Below, piece after piece: positions 16,124 through 28,802 of a stretch of DNA of 64,000 nt. The position numbers and the translations under genes were made by a program. Position 1 is the first letter of the stretch. Each line of letters starts with the position of its first letter. Under the pieces are notes generated by a model, which saw only the letters and a program-made list of their open reading frames with translations, was not told the DNA's origin and ran no database searches. The DNA is from Candidatus Bipolaricaulota bacterium (GTDB lineage: Bacteria > Bipolaricaulota > Bipolaricaulia > UBA7950 > UBA9294), in NCBI GenBank assembly GCA_040752575.1, contig JBFMGK010000003.1:1-64000 (forward strand). The letters run 5' to 3'.

Positions 16124-19100
16124 TCATGCCACCCACCCCTCCGAAAGAGCCTCGGCCTGTTCGAGAACGGTCTCGGTCGCCTTGGCCTGCTTGTCCGGCG
16201 GGTAGCCGTACTTGCGCAGGATGCGTTTGACGAGCACGCGTAGCTGAGCGCGAACGTTCTCGCGCACGGTCCAGTCGATCTTGACGTTCTTCCGCACGGT
16301 GTCGGCCAGCTCGCGCGCGATGGTCCGCAGGGTCTCGTCGCCGAGCACCTTCACGGCGCTGTCGTTCGTCTCGAGCGCGTCGTAGAAGGCGACTTCGTCG
16401 TCGCTGAGCTTCAGCCTCTCGCCCCGCGTGTCGGCCTGGCGGATGTCTTTCGCGAGACCGATCAGCTCTTCGATGACCTCCACGGTCTCGATCGCGCGGT
16501 TCTGGTACTTGCGGATCGACTGTTCGAGCAGCTCGGCGAACGACCGCGCCTGCACGACGTTTCGCTTCGAGCGTGTCTTGATCTCGCCCGCGAGGAGCTT
16601 GCGCAGAAGCTCGACGGCGAGGTTCTTCTGCGGCATGCCGCGCACCTCGGCAAGGAATTGCTCGGAGAGAATCGAGATGTCGGGTTTCTTGAGACCTGCG
16701 GCGGCAAACAGGTCGACCACGTCGTCGGAGACGATGGCGCCGGAGATGATCTGCCGGATGGCGTGGTCGAGTTCCTCGTCGGTCTTGCGATCGACGGTTG
16801 CGCCCTTGGCGAGCACGGCGCGCACGGCCTGGAAGAAGCCGACGTCGTCGCGAATCGCGAGCGCCTGCTCGTGCGGCACGGCCAGAGCGAACGCCTGCGA
16901 TAGCTCAGTCACGGCGCGCAGCCAGCGTGCTTTTCCGTCCGCCTGCGCCAGGATGTGCTCCTGTGCCAGAGGCAGGAGCGCGAGCTTCTCCTGTGGCGTT
17001 CCGCTCACCCACTTCGCCCAGTTGAAGCCCGGAACGACGCCTGCTGGCGTCGGAAACTGAGCAAGGAGGCCGCGGCAGATCTCGTACTTCTCGAGGATCA
17101 GCGAGACGGCCTCGGCTTGGTCGATCGCTGTCTCTCCCGTCCCGCCGCTCTCGGTGTAGGTCGCAAGCGCGCGGCGCAGCTCGTCGGCGAGGCCGAGGTA
17201 GTCGACCACCAGACCGCCGGGCTTGTCGCCGAACACGCGGTTCACGCGCGCGATCGCCTGCATCAGGCCGTGCCCGCGCATTGGCTTGTCGACGTACATC
17301 GTGTGCAGGCTCGGCGCATCGAACCCGGTGAGCCACGTGTCGCGAACGATCACGACACGGAACGGATCGGCCGGATCGCGGAAACGCGCCGCCAGAACCT
17401 CGCGCTTCGGCTTATTGCGGATGTGCGGCTGCCAATCGAGCGAGTCGCTCGCCGAGCCGGTCATCACGACCTTCATCGACCCGTGCTCGTCGTCCGCGCC
17501 ATGCCATTGCGGCCGCAGCGCGGCGATCTCGCGGTACAGCTCGACGCAGATGCGGCGGCTCATGCAGACAATCATCGCCTTGCCTTGCATCGCTGCGAGC
17601 CGCTTCTCGTAGTGATCGACGATGTCGCGCGCGATGACCTTCACGCGCTGCGGCGAGCCGACGACGGCTTCGAGCTGGGCCCACTTCGTCTTGAGCTTCT
17701 CCTTGCGCTCGACCTCTTCGCCTTCGGTCGCCTCGTCGAAGTCGAGGTCGATCTTCGGCTTGTCGGCTTCGGCAAGGGCGAGCTTCGCGAGGCGGCTCTC
17801 GTAGTAGATGGGCACCGTCGCCCCGTCAGCGACCGCGCGCTGGATGTCGTAGACGCTGATGTAGTCGCCGAACACGGCGCGCGTGTTCTTGTCGGTCAGA
17901 TCGATCGGGGTTCCGGTGAACCCGATGAACGACGCGTTGGGCAACGCGTCGCGCATGTGGCGAGCGTACCCGTCGATGAAGTCATACTGGCTACGGTGTG
18001 CCTCGTCGGCTAGGACCACGATGTTCCGTCGGTCTGAGAGTACCGCGTGCTGGTCGCCGCCCGGCTCAGGAAAGAACTTCTGGATCGTGGTGAAGACCAC
18101 CCCGCCGCCCTCGGTGCGGAGCTTCGCGCGAAGATCGGCCCGGTCCTGGGCCTGCTCCGGCGCCCAGCCGACCACTTCGCGACAGCGCGAGAACGTGCCG
18201 AAGAGCTGATCGTCGAGATCGTTGCGGTCCGTGATGACGACGATCGTCGGATTCGCCATCGCCGGCTCAAGGATGATCCGTCCGGCGTAGAACGCCATCG
18301 TCAGGCTCTTACCCGAGCCCTGCGTGTGCCAGATGACGCCGACCCTGCGATCGCCGGGATCACCGCCCGGGCGGAGGCCTGCCTCGTAGCGCCCAGGCAC
18401 GTAGGCCGTTCGATCGTCCGGCACCTGCCGCGTCGCGCGCAGCGTCTCCTCCACCGCGGCGTTCACGGCGTGGAACTGGTGGTAGCCGGCCATCTTCTTG
18501 CTCGCAATGCCCGCAGCATTGCCGTCCTCGAAGACCACGAAGTGGCGAACCAGGTCGAGAAGACGCCGCTTGTCGAAGACGCCGCGCAGCAGGACCTCGA
18601 GCTCTGTCAGGCGTGCGCTCGCGTCCTCCTTCCCCTCGATCGTGCGCCACGGCTTGAACCACTCCCGCCCCGCACCCAGAGCGCCAATCCGCGCCAGCGT
18701 CCCGTCCGAGACGACAAGCGCCTCGTTGTAGGCAAGGAGCGCGGGGATCTCCGCCTGGTAGGTCTGGAGCTGCTTGTACGCCGTCCACACCGTCGCGTTC
18801 TCGTCGGCCGGGTTTTTGAGCTCAATGACCGCGAGCGGCAGGCCGTTCACGAACAAGACGATGTCTGGCCGCCGCGTGTGCTGGCCTTCGGCAACCGTGA
18901 ACTGGTTCACCGCCAGCCAACCGTTGTTGTTGGGGTCCTCGAAGTCGAGGACGCGAGCCTGATCGCCCGCAATCGGTCCATCTGGGCGCCGGTACTCCAC
19001 CGGGACACCCTTCACGAGCATGCGGTGCACGACGCGGTTGCGCTCAATCAACGAGGGCGCATCGACGCGCGTCAGCTTCCGGAAGGTGTCTTCGAGCGCT

Positions 19101-19303
19101 TCGGGCGGAAGCTGCGGATTGAGCTTCACGAGCGCATCGCGGAGGCGGCACTCCAGGACCACATCGCGGAAGCTGGGATAACTTCGCTCGGCATTGAGTT
19201 CTCCGGCCGCGATGGCGGGCCCGTAGAGCACTGCATAGCCAAGCTCTTCGAGCCAGGCGAGGGCAGCGTCTTCTACGACAGATTCCGTAAAGGCCCTAGC
19301 CAT
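16124..19303 (-). CDS. hsdR: Type I restriction endonuclease subunit R
   Basis: [20 protein letters not shown] nuclease motif, [36 protein letters not shown]. Confidence 0.97.
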
Positions 19304-19496
19304 GGCCTCTCAGTTCAGGCGAGCGCTTCGCCCGGCCTGCGTGCCGCCTCTCCCGTATCCGGCAACGGTTGCCGGATTCATTGCCGGATACTCCTCCGTT
19401 CAGGAGCGTTAGCCATGTATCCGGCAATCCGACCTTGCTTCGTTGCCGGATAGCCGGCACCGCAGAAGGAGCGCAGCCGAACCATGCGGTCCTCAT
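19296..19496 (-). other. Short linker ORF (66 aa) coupling the deaminase gene to hsdR
   Basis: ATG overlaps the deaminase TGA (ATGA); its TAG lies just inside the hsdR start. No recognisable domain. Confidence 0.35.
19355..19452. repeat. Cluster of five ATCCGGCAA motifs in mixed orientation
   Basis: Forward copies at 19355-19366 and 19417-19428; reverse copies at 19368-19378, 19380-19391 and 19442-19452. Confidence 0.8.
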
Positions 19497-20989
19497 CCTC
19501 GAAGCACCTCGTAGCGCGTCGCTCGCGCGCTTCCCACTCTCCGCAGCAACCCGAGCTCAGACAGGTGGCCAAGCTGGAAGCGTGCAGTCCGAAGCGGAAT
19601 TCCCATAGCGTCCTGGTATTCAGCCGTAGTCACGACCTCGCGCGTCGCCAGCCAGTCCCAGCCCGTTCGTTCTGCTTCGCTGAGCTGCGCAAGCATGTCA
19701 CCACGAGACTTCGGCAGGGCCGCCTTCGCTTCTCGGTACAGTGTCAGAACCACATAGGGCGCCTTGTAGGAGTAGGCCGGCAGAGGCATACCCGCCGCCT
19801 GCGCGCGATTCCTCATCGACTTCAACCCCAACCCTCTCTCCTCGGCAAGATCCAGCCTCGCGAACACAAAATGCAGAACAGGGTTACGACTCAGCATAGG
19901 CGCCTCGAATGCTTGCACCTGCTCGAGAGTCACTGGCTCCACAGGAAGCCCGGGGCTCCACACCTCAACTCTCTCCGGGGTCGCCACCAATTGACACTTC
20001 CCGCCGGCGATCTCGTAGTCACGGTGTACGAGCGCATTGACGATACCCTCGCGAATCAACTCGAACAGAGCCGCGTTCGACTCCCTGCGGCGAGCTTCGG
20101 ACCGGTCGATCGGGTTGGGCAGCTTGTCGCGGAGCCATTGCAGCGCCTGTTCGGGCGCAAGGATCTGCGGACCGTCGAAGTCACGCGTCTCTTCCCTTCC
20201 GTCAGGATAGTGGATCGTTCCAAGCAAGCCGGCTTGCGGCATGACCGTCCGCGGCTCCTTCCCGAACAGGAGGAATCCGTACCCGGTCGGCGTCCAGCGA
20301 CCGTCCTTCTCCGTCAGGAGGCCCTGCTGAGCCAATCGCCGATAGAAGGCCGCCGAGCCGACCTTGTCGCGCATGCCGGCCGTCGCCCAGTACATCTCCA
20401 GCGCCTCGTCTGACAAGTCGTCGGTCGCCGTGTTCGCGAACGCTTCTTCTAGACTGGAAAGGAGCGCGGCTTTCGGCTTCGCCTTCCGCGCGGCCGCCGC
20501 CCGCTCCAGCGCTTGCGCGATGAACTCGCGGTTCTCCTCCTGGATGACCTCTTGGAGATCGCGATCGAACATCCGGACCGTGACGCCGGTATCCTGGAGG
20601 TACTTGATCCCCTTGCGGTCGACCTTTGGATCGGGGTCCTCAATCCCGACCCAGACATCTTTGATCCTGGCATTCACAATCCGCTCGGCGCATCCAAGCT
20701 TCGGCTCGTGGCGAGAGCCAGGAGCGCATGGCTCAAGCGTCACGAACAGAGCAGCGCCATCGAGCCGGGCATCGCGGTTCTTCCGTTCGAGCAGCGTGTA
20801 CTCGGCATGATCGCCATCGCGCAACTCCCCGCGGCATGCCGTCTCGACCGTCCCGTCCGGCTTCCACAGCACGGCTCCGACGCGAGGACTCGCCTTGGCA
20901 TCCGCGCGCGGCTCGGCAATCGACTGTCGCATGACGTCGACAGCCAACTCCATCAGCTTGCGAGGATCTAGCTCAGCGGGCGGTGTCAT
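19493..20989 (-). CDS. Fusion of a RibD-like Zn deaminase, an HATPase_c_4-like domain and a winged HTH
   Basis: SPRVGAVL, HAEYTLLE, TLEPC-x11-C, EDPDPKVDRKGI; then REGIVNALVHRDY, VWSPG, SRNP, EERGLG; C-terminal wHTH-like LRRVGSARATRY. Own GAGGAG RBS. Confidence 0.85.
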   Translation of the reverse strand: MTPPAELDPRKLMELAVDVMRQSIAEPRADAKASPRVGAVLWKPDGTVETACRGELRDGDHAEYTLLERKNRDARLDGAALFVTLEPCAPGSRHEPKLGCAERIVNARIKDVWVGIEDPDPKVDRKGIKYLQDTGVTVRMFDRDLQEVIQEENREFIAQALERAAAARKAKPKAALLSSLEEAFANTATDDLSDEALEMYWATAGMRDKVGSAAFYRRLAQQGLLTEKDGRWTPTGYGFLLFGKEPRTVMPQAGLLGTIHYPDGREETRDFDGPQILAPEQALQWLRDKLPNPIDRSEARRRESNAALFELIREGIVNALVHRDYEIAGGKCQLVATPERVEVWSPGLPVEPVTLEQVQAFEAPMLSRNPVLHFVFARLDLAEERGLGLKSMRNRAQAAGMPLPAYSYKAPYVVLTLYREAKAALPKSRGDMLAQLSEAERTGWDWLATREVVTTAEYQDAMGIPLRTARFQLGHLSELGLLRRVGSARATRYEVLRG

Positions 20990-21127
20990 GTTTACGTTCT
21001 CCTCGCGGCCGCGGCACGCGCGACGCGCATCGCCCTCTTCCTCTTCTTCATCTTCATCCTCGCTATCTTCGTGTTCGGCGTGATCGTCGAGATCGTCATC
21101 GTCGTCAACGTCGTGATCTCTAGGTGT

Positions 21128-21610
21128 CTAGTCATTCCAGTGTGCCGCGATGTATCCGGCGATCCCATGGGCCGGATGGAACGCAGGGTAGGTTCTCTGG
21201 AAGGCATCCAGCGCATCGGCAAGCGAGGTCTTGGGCAAGGCCGAGGTATGCCGAAGCAGGTACAGAAATGCAATCCCCGGCCCGCGGGATTCGCCCTGGT
21301 TGCAGTGGACGAGGACCTTCTTCCCGCTCGCCAGCTTCTCATGGATGAACGCGATCGCCGCCTCGACTAGCTCCTCGTGGATGTAGGCTGGATCGTCGAC
21401 ATCGACAAGGTTGAGGTACAGGCGGTCGCCGCGCACTGCATGGAGGTACTCCGGATGCCCCTTCGGAGCTCCCTTCGTTGTGTAGCCGAGGAGCTGACGA
21501 TGGTAGGGCTCTTTGCACGTGTGGACGACGGCCCAACCTTCTCTGCCATCAACCTGATACTCGAAGTCACCCTGGTGGCCGACGAAGAGGTTGGCAAAGA
21601 CCTCAATCAT
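21128..21610 (-). CDS. Dual-specificity/PTP-superfamily phosphatase
   Basis: KVLVHCNQGESRG (HCX5R P-loop), NLFVG, LNLVD. Start trimmed to MIEVFANLF. Confidence 0.9.
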   Translation of the reverse strand: MIEVFANLFVGHQGDFEYQVDGREGWAVVHTCKEPYHRQLLGYTTKGAPKGHPEYLHAVRGDRLYLNLVDVDDPAYIHEELVEAAIAFIHEKLASGKKVLVHCNQGESRGPGIAFLYLLRHTSALPKTSLADALDAFQRTYPAFHPAHGIAGYIAAHWND

Positions 21611-21712
21611 GTGTCCCCTGCGCGACGTGCTCGGGATCATGCGGAACCCCATAGCGGAGGCGTACCAGCCGTTCGAGAACGATGCCTTCGTCTGGAGCCA
21701 CGGGGATTGTGC

Positions 21713-23428
21713 TCATGACGTCTCATCTACTATCGCTTCCGCACCTACTGGCATGCACGACTGGACCAGAGCGCGCAACGCCCGCAACCTGTCCTCCTTG
21801 ATGAGGCCAGTCTCGTAGTGGTATAGGACATGTTGGGGCTTCCTGTGTGGCGATCCCGCACGAGGGATCGCCAGGAAGGTTTCAAGCTCTCCCGGCACGC
21901 ACACGATCGCGGACGTGAGCACCGCATCTTTCGAATCCCGAATCAGCTGATTGAGGTCGGCGTGCTCGTCCCTACCATTGTCGTCGTCGTGAAGAACAGA
22001 GTGCGGTATCCCGAGGCAAGCCATGAGGTTCATGAAGCGGTGGATGTTGTACTTGCCGAGACCGTCCAGCACGTAGAGACCCTCCGGCAACCTCGGCACC
22101 TTCCCCGCGTCAACCAGCCTTCCTATCAAAGCCTGCTCGGTCGGCCCCTCTACGATCAGCACATGACCTGCGAAGAACATCCCGCAGCGATCCGGATTCA
22201 GCCACAGGAAGTACTTGAGTGCCTCCATCTCCGGCATCCAGTCCTCTTTCGCCAGCGCGTCCTTGAGCTTGGGCCACTTCACGGCGATCCGGTTCAGAGC
22301 CTGGTTCGCGTCAGCTAGCTTCTCCCAGGCGTCGCGGCTTATCTGCCGAATCATCACATGGCCGGACTCGCGCCGAAGACACGAGATGGTAGGAATCAGC
22401 GCTGCCTGACGACTCACGAAGTGCGACGAGTGAGTTGAGCAGAGAACCTGCTGGTAGCCGCCCGCTGACAGCTGCCGCAGGCTGTCAGCCAACAAGAACT
22501 GCTGGGGCGGGTGCAGGAACGCCTCCGGTTCCTCAAAGAGAAGGAGCGTCATAGACGGTGCGAAGTCCTTTGCCTTCTTGGACGGCTTCTTCGGCACGTA
22601 CTTCGCGCCCAGACGGATCAGAGTGTAGATCAGATGTCGCTGGAAGCCCGATCCGAACTGCTCAGCACCCAGCGGCGTCCCATGCGTCTTATCCAAGCAT
22701 CGATAGTCAAGAAGAGACTTGATCATCTCGGCCACTGAGGGCGACCTGAGATCTACCTTGAATGACGCACCCCAGTCCTGGAGGGCCTCCGTTAGCTCCG
22801 CCTCAAGTCTCTCGAGGGATGCGCCGTCCCGGGAGGTCTCAACCTTGATCTTCTCTGCGAATGTCTCGAAGTCGGCACAGAGCTTCTCATATGCGGGGCT
22901 GGACTGGACCGCTCCTTCGAGCACGTTGGTCAGAAGGTCGCGAAGAGCCGATGGCCCGCTTAGTTTCGTGTGCTCGTCGACCTTGCTCACGGCAGGGATG
23001 AAGACGATGTCCCCTATCTTGCCGCTCTGGACGTTCTTCGCACCGTAGAAGGACTCGGATGACAGGGTCCCGTCCGCCGCGTAGCCAAAGATGTAGCCTT
23101 CCTTGTCCTTCTCTGGCGACCTTAGGTACTTCCTCAGTCTGAGCGTCTTCTCCGCTGTGCGATATGTGTCGGCTAGGGATGCGTCTTCTGCATCCGTCAG
23201 CGCGAAGGTCAGCTCCACCCAAGCTTCCTCATCCGCTGGAGCAATGAACGGGAAGTCACGTTCCTGCTTGTACTTGAACCCGTCCTTCTCATAGACTGCC
23301 CGTACCGCATCAATGACCGTGCTCTTCCCAGAGTCATTGGCCCCTACAAGCAGGTTGTAGTCGTACAACACGACGAATGCGTCGTGGACGCCGCGGAAGT
23401 TGTGAATCGCCAGTGATGAGAGCTTCAC
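21713..23428 (-). CDS. OLD-family ATP-dependent nuclease (ABC ATPase + TOPRIM)
   Basis: IHNFRG, GANDSGKS, FGSGFQR, FEEPEAFLHP, STHS; TOPRIM IVEGPTE and HDDD. Confidence 0.92.
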   Translation of the reverse strand: MKLSSLAIHNFRGVHDAFVVLYDYNLLVGANDSGKSTVIDAVRAVYEKDGFKYKQERDFPFIAPADEEAWVELTFALTDAEDASLADTYRTAEKTLRLRKYLRSPEKDKEGYIFGYAADGTLSSESFYGAKNVQSGKIGDIVFIPAVSKVDEHTKLSGPSALRDLLTNVLEGAVQSSPAYEKLCADFETFAEKIKVETSRDGASLERLEAELTEALQDWGASFKVDLRSPSVAEMIKSLLDYRCLDKTHGTPLGAEQFGSGFQRHLIYTLIRLGAKYVPKKPSKKAKDFAPSMTLLLFEEPEAFLHPPQQFLLADSLRQLSAGGYQQVLCSTHSSHFVSRQAALIPTISCLRRESGHVMIRQISRDAWEKLADANQALNRIAVKWPKLKDALAKEDWMPEMEALKYFLWLNPDRCGMFFAGHVLIVEGPTEQALIGRLVDAGKVPRLPEGLYVLDGLGKYNIHRFMNLMACLGIPHSVLHDDDNGRDEHADLNQLIRDSKDAVLTSAIVCVPGELETFLAIPRAGSPHRKPQHVLYHYETGLIKEDRLRALRALVQSCMPVGAEAIVDETS

Positions 23429-24732
23429 GCTGCACTTCTCCTGTGCGATGAGCCGAATGCTCCGACCCGTATCTTGCCTGCTATGAGGTCTGGCAAGAGA
23501 GCGTCACGCGTTGCCGAAAGACTCCTGCTCTCGGATTCTCCACTGACGGCGCGCTCAAACCACGGTCTGACAAGCCCTCCGAAAGCCTCGGCACACTCCT
23601 GAGAGGGCATGGCCAGCATGAAGCGCGCCAGCGCCTGCGCGGGCACGCGCTGGCGACCGCTTGTACCAGTCATACTCTGAATTGCAGACTCCCGGAAGCC
23701 CTCCGAGCGAGCGAGGCAGTAGCCGAACTCAGGCGGCAGTGGCGGTCTCGGACGAAGCACGATGAACTCCGTGGACCCCCAGCCGACCTCACCGTTCCGC
23801 AGGAAGCTGACCAGAGCGGTCTTCCCGTTCTCGAGGCACGGCGTGATGCGCGCGACGAGGGTGTCGCCATTGGTAAACCGCACACCAGATCCGAAGGCAC
23901 GGTCAGCCACCTGATCGGGAACGTGTCCTCGGGTCGGCATATTGGCCATGTCAAGGTAGGGGGCTACATCGCCCTTCCGCAGCGCCCGGGGCGGGTTGAC
24001 CTCGATGACCTGACGAAGTCGCGCCACTTCCCACCCACTCGGTATTTCCCCCAACTCTGACTCCTCGAAGGAGTCGGGGAACAGGTCGGCGATGTGCGGA
24101 GGCAGGCCAGTGTCGCGGCCTTCCGCCTTGGCGCGGACGGGATCGAAGTCGACGAACCATGACTTGAACAGCGCCCGCGCCATCGCCTCAAGCGTCTCGT
24201 TCATCCGGCGGTTCAGCTCGATCTTGTCATCGAGCGTGCCGAGGATGTGGGCGATGGCGCGCTGCTCGTCGATATCCTCAGGGACCACGATCGGGAAGTC
24301 GGGCATCTCGATGAGGGGAATCCGGTCAACGGTGCTTCCGTGGATAGTCCGCGCCCGGAGGGTCTCCTGGAACTGCGGTCCGAGGTATGCATAGAGGAGA
24401 AACCGGTTGTCGATCCTGCCGGGCCGCGCTCGGAGGAGCCCCATCCGTCGCCCAAGGCAACAACGCAAGCCGTCAGGGACTAGCGCTGCCTCGCCTAGGC
24501 GCGTTTCGTAGGAGAAGACGACGTCGGCGGGCATGGGCTCCACCCGGCGCGTCCAGCGTCGATAATCCTCCTCAGAGAGATGTTCCGTCCGCGCTAGATC
24601 TACTCGACCGTTCGCCAGACACGAGATACCTAGAAACACAGGGCCGCTATCGGTCTTGGCCGGCGTCGCATGCGGCCCATCGAAGATCTCGGCGAGCTCC
24701 CCAATGGGCACCTCGCGCCACCTACTCGCCAT
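23425..24732 (-). CDS. hsdS: Type I restriction-modification specificity subunit S
   Basis: Two variable TRDs separated by [42 protein letters not shown]-terminal [13 protein letters not shown]. Confidence 0.95.
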
Positions 24733-24970
24733 GCCCCAGCTCCTTCATGTTCTTGGCGATCGCTTCGTCGAGCTTCTTTGCCTCTGCCTGTTGCTCCCGC
24801 AGCGACGCGATGAGCCGCTGCATCTCGTCGCCCTCGGCTTCCTCGGCACCGACGCAGCGTCCGATGGCGAGCAGGTGTTTCAGACTACGAAGCGGGGCGT
24901 GCCAAGCTAGTGGCGTCCGGAGTGTGGCGCGTGCATTCGTCGTCCATATCCGTGCGTCCGCCGTAATCAT
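24722..24970 (-). pseudogene. Chimeric short ORF ending in a degenerate second copy of the hsdM C-terminus
   Basis: [43 protein letters not shown] versus Hsd[50 protein letters not shown]; overlaps the hsdS start. Confidence 0.85.
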
Positions 24971-26750
24971 GTCCCTTTGCCTCGCGTTTTTCCCCCGCCG
25001 CCGTTTGGAGGATTTGGAGAAGTTATGGAGTCGGCGGTAACGGATCTGGAGCCCTCCATATCTCTTGGCGGCCTAACATAATGCGAGCCCTTCTTGACAC
25101 CTCTCATCTCAAGTTCGCTGCGCCTTACAAGCCTCGCCAGAAGATCGCGAGCCTGGTGCGAGGCGATCCGGCACAGGTCTGCCGCTTCGCGTCGCGCAAT
25201 ACGTCCATGCTTCTCGACGTATTGCAGCACCATCTGCTCCTGCTGGAGCGGCTCGAAGCCGCGCTGTCTCACGTAGCCGGCCTTGTCGCCCAGTGCCCGA
25301 TACGTTGCGGCCGACAGATGCCACGTGCGACCCTTCTTCTGGCCGCGCTCTTCGATGAGCCCCGCCTCCACGAGGTGATGGAGGATCGCCCGGGTGTCGG
25401 CTTCCGGCTTCTGAGTCAGCCTCGCGATTCTCGCTGTGTCGAGGCTCCGTTCCTGCCACAGGGCGTTGAGGGTGAGCAACTCGTCCAGGCTCATCACGCG
25501 CCCGCCTTGCGCCTCAGTGACTAGCAGACGCACGAACTCGAGATTGGCTTTTCCGCCGGGGATAACGACAACGACACCCGCAGGGTCACTGCGCGCATAA
25601 GATGGCGCTGGCCGACCGTTTCGCAGCTGCTCGTAGAAGATCGTGTCGATCCCGCGTGCCGTGCGCTCCACGATGCCCGCGCGTTTGAACGCATCAGCCA
25701 GAAGTGGATTGCGCGGCCGAGGAGCGGTTACGAGGAGGTTCCCCAGGTGCACCCCTTCGGGGAATCCTCCGGGGCTGCTGATCTCGATCCGGTCCGAATG
25801 CCACTGGAAATGCACGGCTCCGAGGCGCTGGTAGTCCCGATGGATGAGGGCGTTCGCGAGAGCCTCGCGCAGGGCCCGCTCCGGGTAATCCGGAATGCCG
25901 ACGCGAAGCAGTCCGACCATGAGTTCCTGCTCACGGTTCCGCGCGCGAATCCGCCCTTCGATCTCCTCCATCACACGCAACAGAGGCCAGCGAAAGAAGT
26001 CGTTGGTCTCGACGTCGAGCCCACGGAGGGCCTGAAAGGCAACCTCGTGGTTGGGTACGAAGCGTCGGAGCGACTCCTCCCTGGCGAACAGGAGCAGCGC
26101 GGCAAGTCGAACGCTCCGGGCGACGCCATTCGCCTCAACGACGCCGAGAGCCTTGGCAAGTTCGAGGTCTGGCAGGTCCAGTAGCGACTCGTCGCTCCGT
26201 CCGCGGCGTTCTCGGATGCTGCGACGGAATCGCTCGAACTCAAGTGGGTCGAGATCCTCCCACCGTGCTGGAGCAACGCTCTGCGCCGAGGGGTCCGTGA
26301 CACCCCGATCTGCCTGGAGAGATCCCATTGAGGTTGCGTCCATAGGGAGGCACGCCGGGCGACCGTCGCCACCAAGCGTTCGCCGCAAGAAGACGCCATC
26401 ACTCGTCCCGACGGGAACACGCTGCACGGGGATCTCAATGCAAAGGATGTCCTCGCCCTGCACTGGCACGACGTTGACCTGCACGGACAGGGCGGGGCGC
26501 GTCCGACCCGCAACCAGCGCCGCAATGCGGTCGGGCAAGGTCGTCGCACCATGGCGCGGCCGCGCGCCTGTGATCCGCCCATCGTCCTCGACGCCGACAA
26601 GCAGGTTCGCGGGCGCAGCTCCCACGCGGTTTGCCAGGCAGACAACCGCTTCGACAAGGTCGTGATCGTTCAGAGGGCACCGCTCTTCCCCCTTGAACTC
26701 CACCTCCAGCGACTCTCCAGCATGAATCAACCGCAGGAGTTCCGTCGGCG

Positions 26751-26754
<4 letters not shown>
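24967..26754 (-). CDS. AlbA_2 (Schlafen-like) + HATPase_c_4 + winged HTH protein
   Basis: [25 protein letters not shown] (AlbA_2); [41 protein letters not shown]; two C-terminal HTH-like segments. Confidence 0.9.

Positions 26755-28802
<2,048 letters not shown>

Follow-up and report, generated by a model that had tools for sequence, protein, structure and literature searches.

Inspection of a 64,000-nucleotide window of a Candidatus Bipolaricaulota genome revealed two distantly related ATPase genes, referred to as A and B, within one restriction-modification (RM) operon and both on the minus strand, which are independent cargo of this operon and not partners. Gene B encodes a deaminase-ATPase-winged helix protein and is followed by an array of short repeats. 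Because such repeats track the DNA-reading tail of B and recur in phages that lack the gene, B is likely an anti-phage enzyme that is restrained by the chromosome and likely fooled by phages. In its complete form, i.e. a stand-alone anti-phage deaminase caged on a chromosomal array, with the phage triplets of repeats acting as decoys, this is a tentative reading of sequence patterns, which we consider somewhat short of probable.

The features of the operon, all on the minus strand, are hsdM (26751-28802), which contains an in-frame DUF559 insert and probably starts at the ATG at 28802 (the longest ORF extends to 29036), gene A (24967-26754), hsdS (23425-24732; recognized in domain and defence-model searches), a gene for an OLD-family ABC ATPase-TOPRIM nuclease (21713-23428), which is separate cargo, a dual-specificity phosphatase-like gene (21128-21652), gene B (19493-20989), the array (19357-19451) and hsdR (16124-19303), whose start lies 54 bp past the array. 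The motifs quoted for ORFs A and B in a preliminary description of this DNA, as well as their positions and strand, were verified in the sequence. The phosphatase-like gene is an optional neighbour of B, present beside it in four related loci, and an HsdR-like gene comes next after B in 19 loci. The defence linkage proposed in that description holds for B: a type I RM system is located within three genes of it at 36 of 97 loci and other defence-type genes at 25 more, with a recognizable defence neighbour being absent at 36.

A and B have in common a chassis comprised of a GHKL ATPase domain (PF13749) and a winged helix; A carries a second winged helix, which is absent from B. The two proteins share 27% identity over 191 aa (BLASTP, E 4e-11), and a profile comparison extended the homology to residues 176-493 of B and 152-478 of A (probability 97.5, E 6.5e-12). 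The best fold match of both is PDB 3LMM (DIP2311). These results, together with the domain calls, support the earlier view that homologous C-terminal modules follow an AlbA_2 domain in A and a deaminase in B. The pair was also called paralogous, which is correct as regards homology; however, A and B are not recent duplicates, judging from a quick chassis tree on which they lie far apart, each beside relatives from other genomes. Among 46 labelled proteins of the phylum, the N-terminal domain of the chassis is AlbA_2 in 35, a deaminase in 4, DUF4062 in 3 and not called in 4; SIR2-like fusions were also seen. The proposal of effectors swapped on a constant sensor therefore stands for the effectors, but not for the constancy of the sensor end, where the helix and its site are themselves exchanged in the B family (see below). 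The database label of RecG helicase was rejected, since no SF2 helicase domains were detected in either protein.

The B protein (498 aa) is composed of a RibD-like zinc deaminase domain (dCMP_cyt_deam_1, residues 13-115), an N-subdomain, the GHKL ATPase domain (HATPase_c_4, 329-417) and the winged helix (HTH, 447-485), with LRTARFQL (466-473) as its recognition helix. The zinc, catalytic and ATPase residues are all intact: H61, E63, C88, C100, E314 and N318 are invariant among 45 aligned relatives, and the motifs HAE, EPC-x11-C and ExxxN occur in 120, 119 and 119 of 120 family members, respectively, with an invariant R-x-E-L-R-x-G-D preceding HAE. RibD/RibG (PDB 2B3Z, 4G3M, 3ZPC) is the best match of the N-terminal domain in both sequence and fold, and its HxE and PC-xn-C zinc site, including the zinc ligands and the catalytic glutamate, is retained. 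B differs from these enzymes in lacking the C-terminal reductase domain, and it scores only 56 bits against the RibD equivalog TIGR00326 (cut-off 156). Of two RibD motifs whose positions we take to bind the riboflavin precursor, NPxVG is kept in 7 of 120 family members and DPNP in none (DPDP is found in 117). A role in riboflavin synthesis was rejected on the basis of the missing reductase, the score below the cut-off and the presence of a separate full-length RibD-like gene in the host genome.

The dCTP deaminases and AvcD are defence deaminases that deplete nucleotides. B resembles them in being a likely anti-phage deaminase found in defence neighbourhoods, but belongs to another clade and has other partner domains. 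The same applies to a further deaminase-type anti-phage protein, KomA of the Kongming system, as presented in the accessible part of its description (PMC13434031). None of the deaminase system models of PADLOC 2.0 matched B, the chassis of which matched the Aga_SIR2-PNTD1-PNTD2 models only. The B family is widespread; a plasmid search for B homologues at E 1e-30 gave none. Neither the deaminase-PF13749 fusion nor the 3′ arrays were found described in a literature search largely limited to open-access papers.

The array contains five exact copies of ATCCGGCAA (0.34 expected), predicted to be sites of the B winged helix. The 9-bp site is arranged as a direct-direct-inverted triplet, which is present twice, with an inner period of 12 bp and an outer period of 62 bp; the middle site of the first triplet is degenerate. 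It is the only such cluster in the genome, in which the 9-mer is neither avoided nor enriched (26 occurrences; 21.7 expected). With a site skeleton chosen by eye from the same loci that were later counted, at least three exact copies were found in the 200 nt downstream of B at 76 of 93 family loci, versus 5 of 4650 Markov controls. Across 43 loci, 182 copies lie downstream of B, none in 11,703 nt upstream and two inside genes. A second triplet is placed 61-63 bp from the first in 35 of 45 loci, and the two-triplet pattern was matched by 34 of 224 fetched loci, some of them duplicates. The triplet was detected in 2 of 151 genomes of the phylum, each time behind a B gene, and in none of 251 Pseudomonadota genomes. 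Since 13 of the 93 loci have no array, including those of five genes from Gammaproteobacteria whose helices look intact, and of the two divergent deaminase fusions, the array is not obligatory. No promoter-like site was found in the region 19200-21300.

The sequence of the site varies with that of the recognition helix. In an alignment of 45 dereplicated loci (numbering of the 8-mer TCxxGxxA), R at residue 471 is paired with A at position 6 (29/29), and N, F or Y with C (16/16), while R at residue 470 is paired with CG (12/12) and K with GG (4/4). Q470 pairs with three site types, so this code is incomplete, and part of the covariation stems from linkage, as helix and site are adjacent. On a tree of the enzyme core, 26 changes of site type were counted (shuffled mean 29.4, minimum 10). 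Helix and site are thus shuffled across the enzyme tree, which identifies the DNA-reading tail as the rapidly swapped part of B. In a blind test, a genome located by the DNA pattern alone contained the site TCGGGCCA, with the predicted RTAKNH helix encoded upstream. Helix types with K/N or L/N at residues 470/471 are predicted to be specific for TCGGGCCA or TCCCGCCA.

Exact triplets were also found in 57 viral contigs, forming 22 clusters, one of which comprises 34 of the contigs; reversed, re-oriented, re-spaced and off-code control patterns each gave no match there. The frequencies of 16 site types in viruses and hosts are correlated (Spearman 0.90), and the unspecified base preceding site 2 is A or T in all 22 viral clusters and in 42 of 45 hosts. 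Mixed triplets are more frequent in viruses (9 of 22 clusters) than in hosts (1 of 24 triplets; p 0.004). Neither a B homologue nor a B-type helix was detected in 25 viral records (9 of them near complete), the host genome serving as a positive control for the helix search; one viral match to B was to the deaminase only. A single triplet is present in 21 of the 25 records, and the idea of a general second phage triplet was discarded, as the two-triplet pattern had no match in viral contigs. At some viral loci, one extra site lies approximately 62 bp away. The triplets occupy unrelated intergenic places with no phage gene common to their flanks, apart from three cluster representatives in which they fall within ORFs; one of these three matches lies in a peptide repeat and could be due to chance. 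A search of the GenBank phage collection with a triplet returned weak matches only. The viral sites could also belong to a phage protein of another family.

According to the accessible text of a recent preprint (bioRxiv 10.64898/2026.05.29.728809), the PF13749 part of RzAgo (SLFN-pAgo) drives ATP-dependent tetramerization and not sensing, and its effector stays caged by a nucleic-acid reader at the C-terminus until a signal arrives. B resembles RzAgo in possessing PF13749 with E-x3-N and a C-terminal reader, but RzAgo has an Argonaute core and is guided by RNA, whereas the reader of B is a winged helix whose ligand is likely a fixed chromosomal array. The preliminary description had regarded the ATPase-winged helix part as a sensor rather than a transcription regulator. 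RzAgo speaks against sensing by the GHKL domain, and the label of DNA-binding regulator is not simply wrong, because the helix of B appears to read a specific site.

In the mechanism that we tentatively propose, the winged helix of B would bind the array site in double-stranded DNA, and binding to two in-phase triplets would restrain the enzyme. Infection that destroys or alters the array DNA would release B, whose GHKL domain could then oligomerize with ATP, as in RzAgo, and switch on the deaminase; the substrate would be a nucleotide or a nucleic-acid base rather than a riboflavin precursor. A replicating phage, by supplying many copies of one triplet, would keep B switched off. The type III toxin-antitoxin system ToxIN is comparable, in that a gene-linked repeat restrains the toxin and phages carry pseudo-antitoxin repeats. 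Effectors caged by retrons, cited in the discussion of the same preprint, likewise depend on a gene-linked nucleic acid. In these systems the restraint is an RNA or msDNA product, whereas B would be held in check by the chromosome as such, through an exchangeable helix that reads it.

The helix-site covariation would fit equally well if the array were an assembly platform, on which binding nucleates the active oligomer and a phage triplet acts as a trigger or as a sink preventing assembly. This reading, unlikely but the strongest of the rivals, would also account for the second triplet of hosts, some six helical turns from the first, and for the mostly single triplets of viral contigs. However, with an activating array always next to the gene, another brake would be required, and phages should lose a pure trigger, yet they retain the triplets, at intergenic positions that are unrelated and share no flanking gene. 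A little less likely still is that the array is a downstream operator, limiting B or the next gene (here hsdR) by roadblock or looping, with infection sensed otherwise. Autoregulators are typically recognized by a winged helix encoded close to its cognate repeats, and the distance from the array to hsdR is 54-148 bp, HsdR-like genes being the recurrent followers noted above. Against this, upstream copies are absent, the array follows B whatever gene comes next, and a phage would gain nothing from copies that relieve repression.

It is improbable that the repeats are RNA hairpins, or recombination sites for the exchange of 3′ cassettes, instead of regulatory protein-binding sites. RNA folding of the region is favourable (z -4.3), and further triplets of other types in the 62-bp register of the arrays of loci L105, L110 and L146 look like a history of exchange. 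Nevertheless, the second direct copy, which a hairpin would not need, is kept (the best triplets contain 0.5 mismatches on average), pairing dwindles within three bases of the flank, and the residue-to-base covariation is left unexplained by both variants.

The preliminary description further suggested that A and B hetero-oligomerize, which, as a single two-warhead system joined through the GHKL domains, we regard as very improbable. The two share a chassis and an operon, a Schlatpase and a B gene also lie close together at locus L103, and, in the accessible text of the above preprint, RzAgo tetramers are hardly changed when the SLFN domain is deleted. This suggestion found no genomic support: a second PF13749 gene occurs at only 1 of 100 B loci (62 of at least 6 kb), hsdM abuts hsdS without A in five related operons (L076, L078, L083, L105 and L114), a duplicated hsdM tail flanks A, and the low identity of the proteins is accompanied by different 3′ repeats. 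This duplicate of the hsdM 3′ terminus (24735-24825, minus strand; 81% identity over 91 bp to 26773-26863), situated between A and hsdS and covered by an ORF at 24722-24970, is likely a scar of the arrival of A as a cassette.

By its domain content, A is an ordinary Schlatpase, a known class (PF04326 + PF13749; Schlatpase-HTH) described in 2026 in the same preprint and corresponding to pSlfn HisKinase-HTH (PMC13056530), as far as the available text of both goes; the preprint also reports RM linkage for Schlatpases. The protein (595 aa) contains SLFN_AlbA_2 (residues 14-125; PF04326, 41.5 bits, cut-off 25.3), HATPase_c_4 (314-390; PF13749, 58.9 bits) and two winged helices, and is DIP2311-like. 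The catalytic Ex4(E/D)xK (E14, E19, K21) is present in 120 of 120 relatives, and the ExxxN motif, with invariant E297-x3-N301, in 116 of 120; A is likely a tRNA nuclease. A structure model of A is unreliable over the ATPase region (pLDDT under 50). B has the Schlatpase N-subdomain, PF13749 with E-x3-N and C-terminal HTH, but carries a RibD-like deaminase in place of AlbA_2; the chassis alone is common. Short repeats of the TCCA(A/T)A type within the 3′-terminal part of gene A (25004-25061, minus strand) are candidate cognate sites of its last winged helix, on weaker evidence than for B: among relatives with the QARDL helix, 27 of 28 have the matching tail peptide, compared with none of 92 that carry other helices, and a sequence pattern for A-family repeats gave zero matches.

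It is possible, though more doubtful than the proposal for B itself, that PF13749-winged-helix proteins in general are immune effectors with their own chromosome as antitoxin and with a swappable helix and array, countered by 33-bp non-coding phage mimics. If so, such effectors would fire upon destruction of the host chromosome, and anti-defence would be encoded by a DNA site and not by a gene, in a readable residue-to-base code. Non-coding phage counter-defence of this kind would be invisible to gene-based searches. The B family offers a natural specificity code for winged helices, and a cognate 3′ array would provide a direct handle on the regulation of Schlafen-GHKL forms ending in an HTH, whose trigger is not given in the accessible text of the preprint. 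The accessible parts of the two Schlatpase papers (bioRxiv 10.64898/2026.05.29.728809, PMC13056530) make no mention of the deaminase fusion, cognate DNA arrays or phage copies. In the available portion of the second, the systems tested included HisKinase fusions, cloned under native promoters, but only two of seven systems were protective and these were of other types, which counts against the proposal for B; we speculate that failed cloning tests might reflect an array that was cut off or retained. Schlafen-GHKL proteins constitute 58.6% of prokaryotic Schlafen proteins according to the available text of the preprint. Few groups of Schlafen-type proteins are larger than that of the PF13749-winged-helix proteins.

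Gene B (window 19493..20989, minus strand, 498 aa), which encodes a RibD-like zinc deaminase fused to a PF13749 GHKL ATPase and a winged helix, is followed by five exact copies of ATCCGGCAA (window 19357-19451; 0.34 expected). At least three exact copies of one 8-mer of the form TCxxGxxA, a skeleton picked by eye from the same B-family loci, were found downstream in 76 of the 93 loci with enough DNA on that side (controls, 5/4650), and a direct-direct-inverted triplet in 75/93; the array was absent in 13/93, one being a truncated gene. The copies occur exclusively on the 3′ side of B genes. For the helix-site alignment, three loci (two divergent, one truncated) were removed beforehand; 80 of the remaining 90 carry arrays, and 45 were left at 80% identity. 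Among these dereplicated loci, triplets lie 61-63 bp apart in 35, and residue 471, located in the predicted DNA-recognition helix of B (residues 466-473), predicts position 6 of the site in all 45. Residue 470 predicts positions 3-4 when it is R, K or, mostly, L, and fails for Q.

On a tree of B residues 8-419 (two rows poorly filled), site type is scattered (26 changes versus a shuffled mean of 29.4; 6 of 200 shuffles gave a count this low), which indicates, at the sequence level, that helix and site travel together as a cassette. When 151 Myxococcota genomes were searched with the DNA pattern alone, two matched, a known B locus and a new genome, in which three triplets come after the remains of a B gene that has the helix expected for them. 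The 29 longer of the best 150 helix-profile matches comprised 12 deaminase-GHKL proteins, 9 GHKL proteins with no N-terminal domain called, one AlbA_2-PF13749 protein (Schlatpase) and 7 unrelated ones. Extra triplets of another site type, often in the 62-bp register, lie further 3′ of B in L105, L110, L122, L141, L146 and L055; they may be a record of former helix cassettes.

Among 43 other PF13749 genes, 16 have a 3′ end with at least three copies of a 7-mer (controls, 9/244), a weaker hint that 3′ sites may be family-wide, since the relatives of gene A are known from little DNA. Tandem tetrapeptides precede the helix in 8 of the 43. Such repeats (12-bp DNA period) stand immediately ahead of the winged helix in many Schlatpases (L025, L044, L058, L063 and others), where they may represent the same kind of site within the gene.

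The degenerate triplet was also detected in 57 viral contigs of 22 clusters (34 contigs in one cluster); four control patterns gave no match each in the viral contigs, nor did the full two-triplet pattern. Allowing at most three mismatches, 21 of 25 viral records contain one triplet and 4 contain two, and neither B nor its helix was found in any of the 25 whole records searched. The viral triplets are mostly intergenic, with unrelated adjoining genes, and could be used by an unrelated phage protein. They resemble the host set in unspecified flanking bases and type frequencies; mixed-type triplets are commoner in phages than in hosts. Many of the triplet-bearing viruses (L153-L209; this set alone, not size-matched) are large by length and completeness, several exceeding 200 kb.

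Because the host's own array is joined to the gene and the phage copies are gene-free, the simplest reading is that the chromosomal array, fixed to the B gene, would restrain B, and that the phage triplets would mimic this restraint. We favour this reading only tentatively, and binding and all later steps in it are inferred. Assembly driven by ATP and caging by a nucleic acid are proposed by analogy with the RzAgo study; no closer precedent for the mechanism was found in the accessible part of PMC13434031. It is rather unlikely that the array is instead a platform on which B is activated, and a little more doubtful that it is an operator, placed downstream of the gene; an RNA or recombination element is improbable. 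B with its array is a variant of the PF13749 chassis whose regulatory element and phage counterpart we did not find in print.

Gene A (window 24967..26754, minus strand, 595 aa) contains AlbA_2, PF13749 and winged helices. The common C-terminal module claimed in the preliminary description was confirmed, as an N-subdomain, the GHKL domain and a winged helix are common to A and B (27% identity across 191 aa; profile probability 97.5), and PDB 3LMM is the best fold match for both. They are distant family members (quick tree, 60 rows) and not recent duplicates. PF13749 is present in 39 of 151 genomes of the phylum; 58 of the matches come from genomes other than that of the window. N-terminal domains were tallied for 46 of the 58 (left out: one fragment, one split gene and 10 not fetched): 35 AlbA_2 (including one split and one weak), 4 deaminase, 3 DUF4062 and 4 with none called. 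Five of six longer relatives of the B chassis contain a SIR2-like domain. On this evidence, the proposed exchange of N-terminal warheads is real but ancient, and AlbA_2 prevails.

In the B search, 3166 of 8000 scored candidates matched at E 0.001, and all 120 of the matches listed combine deaminase and PF13749. The predicted structure of B is a good model (mean pLDDT 81.6). The family keeps the zinc ligands and the residues for catalysis and ATPase function, and the NPxVG and DPNP motifs of RibD, which we take to be substrate-binding, are altered in its RibD-like N-terminal domain; the genome has a separate RibD-like gene (369 aa). RibD-like deaminases are placed in riboflavin synthesis alone in the accessible part of PMC3239186, and a deaminase-PF13749-winged-helix fusion was not found described in the literature searched. 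A second, divergent deaminase-GHKL-wHTH clade of the same phylum (L046:1252-2736, L050:1255-2805) is without the B-type array; the fusion may have had either one or two origins. The gammaproteobacterial B genes of L009, L011, L012, L014 and L016 lack the array, have non-defence surroundings and provide a natural control for the array model; the genome of L011 (G151) has 16 PF13749 matches.

The suggested defence linkage of B was upheld. In 97 loci (not dereplicated), type I RM lies within three genes of B in 36 (one solely via an Abi_C protein whose tail resembles HsdR), defence-type families of other kinds, assigned from a hand list, in 25, and neither in 36. The other families include type III RM, DUF1156/DUF499, SIR2-HerA, TIR, BrxD and toxin-antitoxin.

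Gene A is a member of an already known family, the Schlatpases (AlbA_2 plus PF13749) of bioRxiv 10.64898/2026.05.29.728809. The available text of this preprint assigns 60,692 of 103,533 prokaryotic Schlafen proteins to this pair, reports RM linkage and describes tetramers driven by ATP binding; the ExxxN motif at the present locus matches its E314/N318. According to the accessible portion of PMC13056530, HisKinase-HTH fusions form 19.2% of its set, and seven systems were tried, HisKinase fusions among them, the two protective ones being of other types. Ex4ExK is retained in A and in 120/120 relatives. In the A family, 27 of the 28 proteins that have the QARDL helix share a tail peptide, which occurs in 0/92 with other helices; this, too, is a weaker hint of 3′ sites than the B arrays.

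A second PF13749 gene occurs in 1 of 100 B loci (62 loci of at least 6 kb), and, judged from sequence, the proposed hetero-oligomer of A and B is very unlikely. A better candidate is a tandem pair of Schlatpase-type genes (L051:7105-9917, G108:C5) in which the stop of one overlaps the start of the other and the second gene has a weak AlbA_2 match.

The minus-strand gene order is hsdM, gene A, a duplicated hsdM tail, hsdS, OLD nuclease, dual-specificity phosphatase, gene B and hsdR. HsdM carries an in-frame DUF559 nuclease-like insert (window 27148-27638), and G+C content dips to 0.60-0.62 mid-region versus about 0.66 in the flanks. In related operons hsdM abuts hsdS directly. At this locus the hsdM 3′ end is present on either side of A (window 24735-24825 and 26773-26863), which suggests that A arrived separately from B. 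The stop of the 24735-24825 copy overlaps the hsdS start, as if translational coupling had been restored. Among named relatives, the one nearest to B (84%) belongs to Candidatus Bipolaricaulis, with an identical OLD-phosphatase-B-hsdR order. The gap preceding gene B (window 20992-21127) contains short repeats of the GACGAT/GAAGAG type, and an ORF overlapping it has no Pfam match. The phosphatase gene (window 21128-21652) is also upstream of B in four related loci (L001, L071, L073, L106), and L040 has one near a DUF4062-GHKL gene; it is a possible accessory of the PF13749 chassis.
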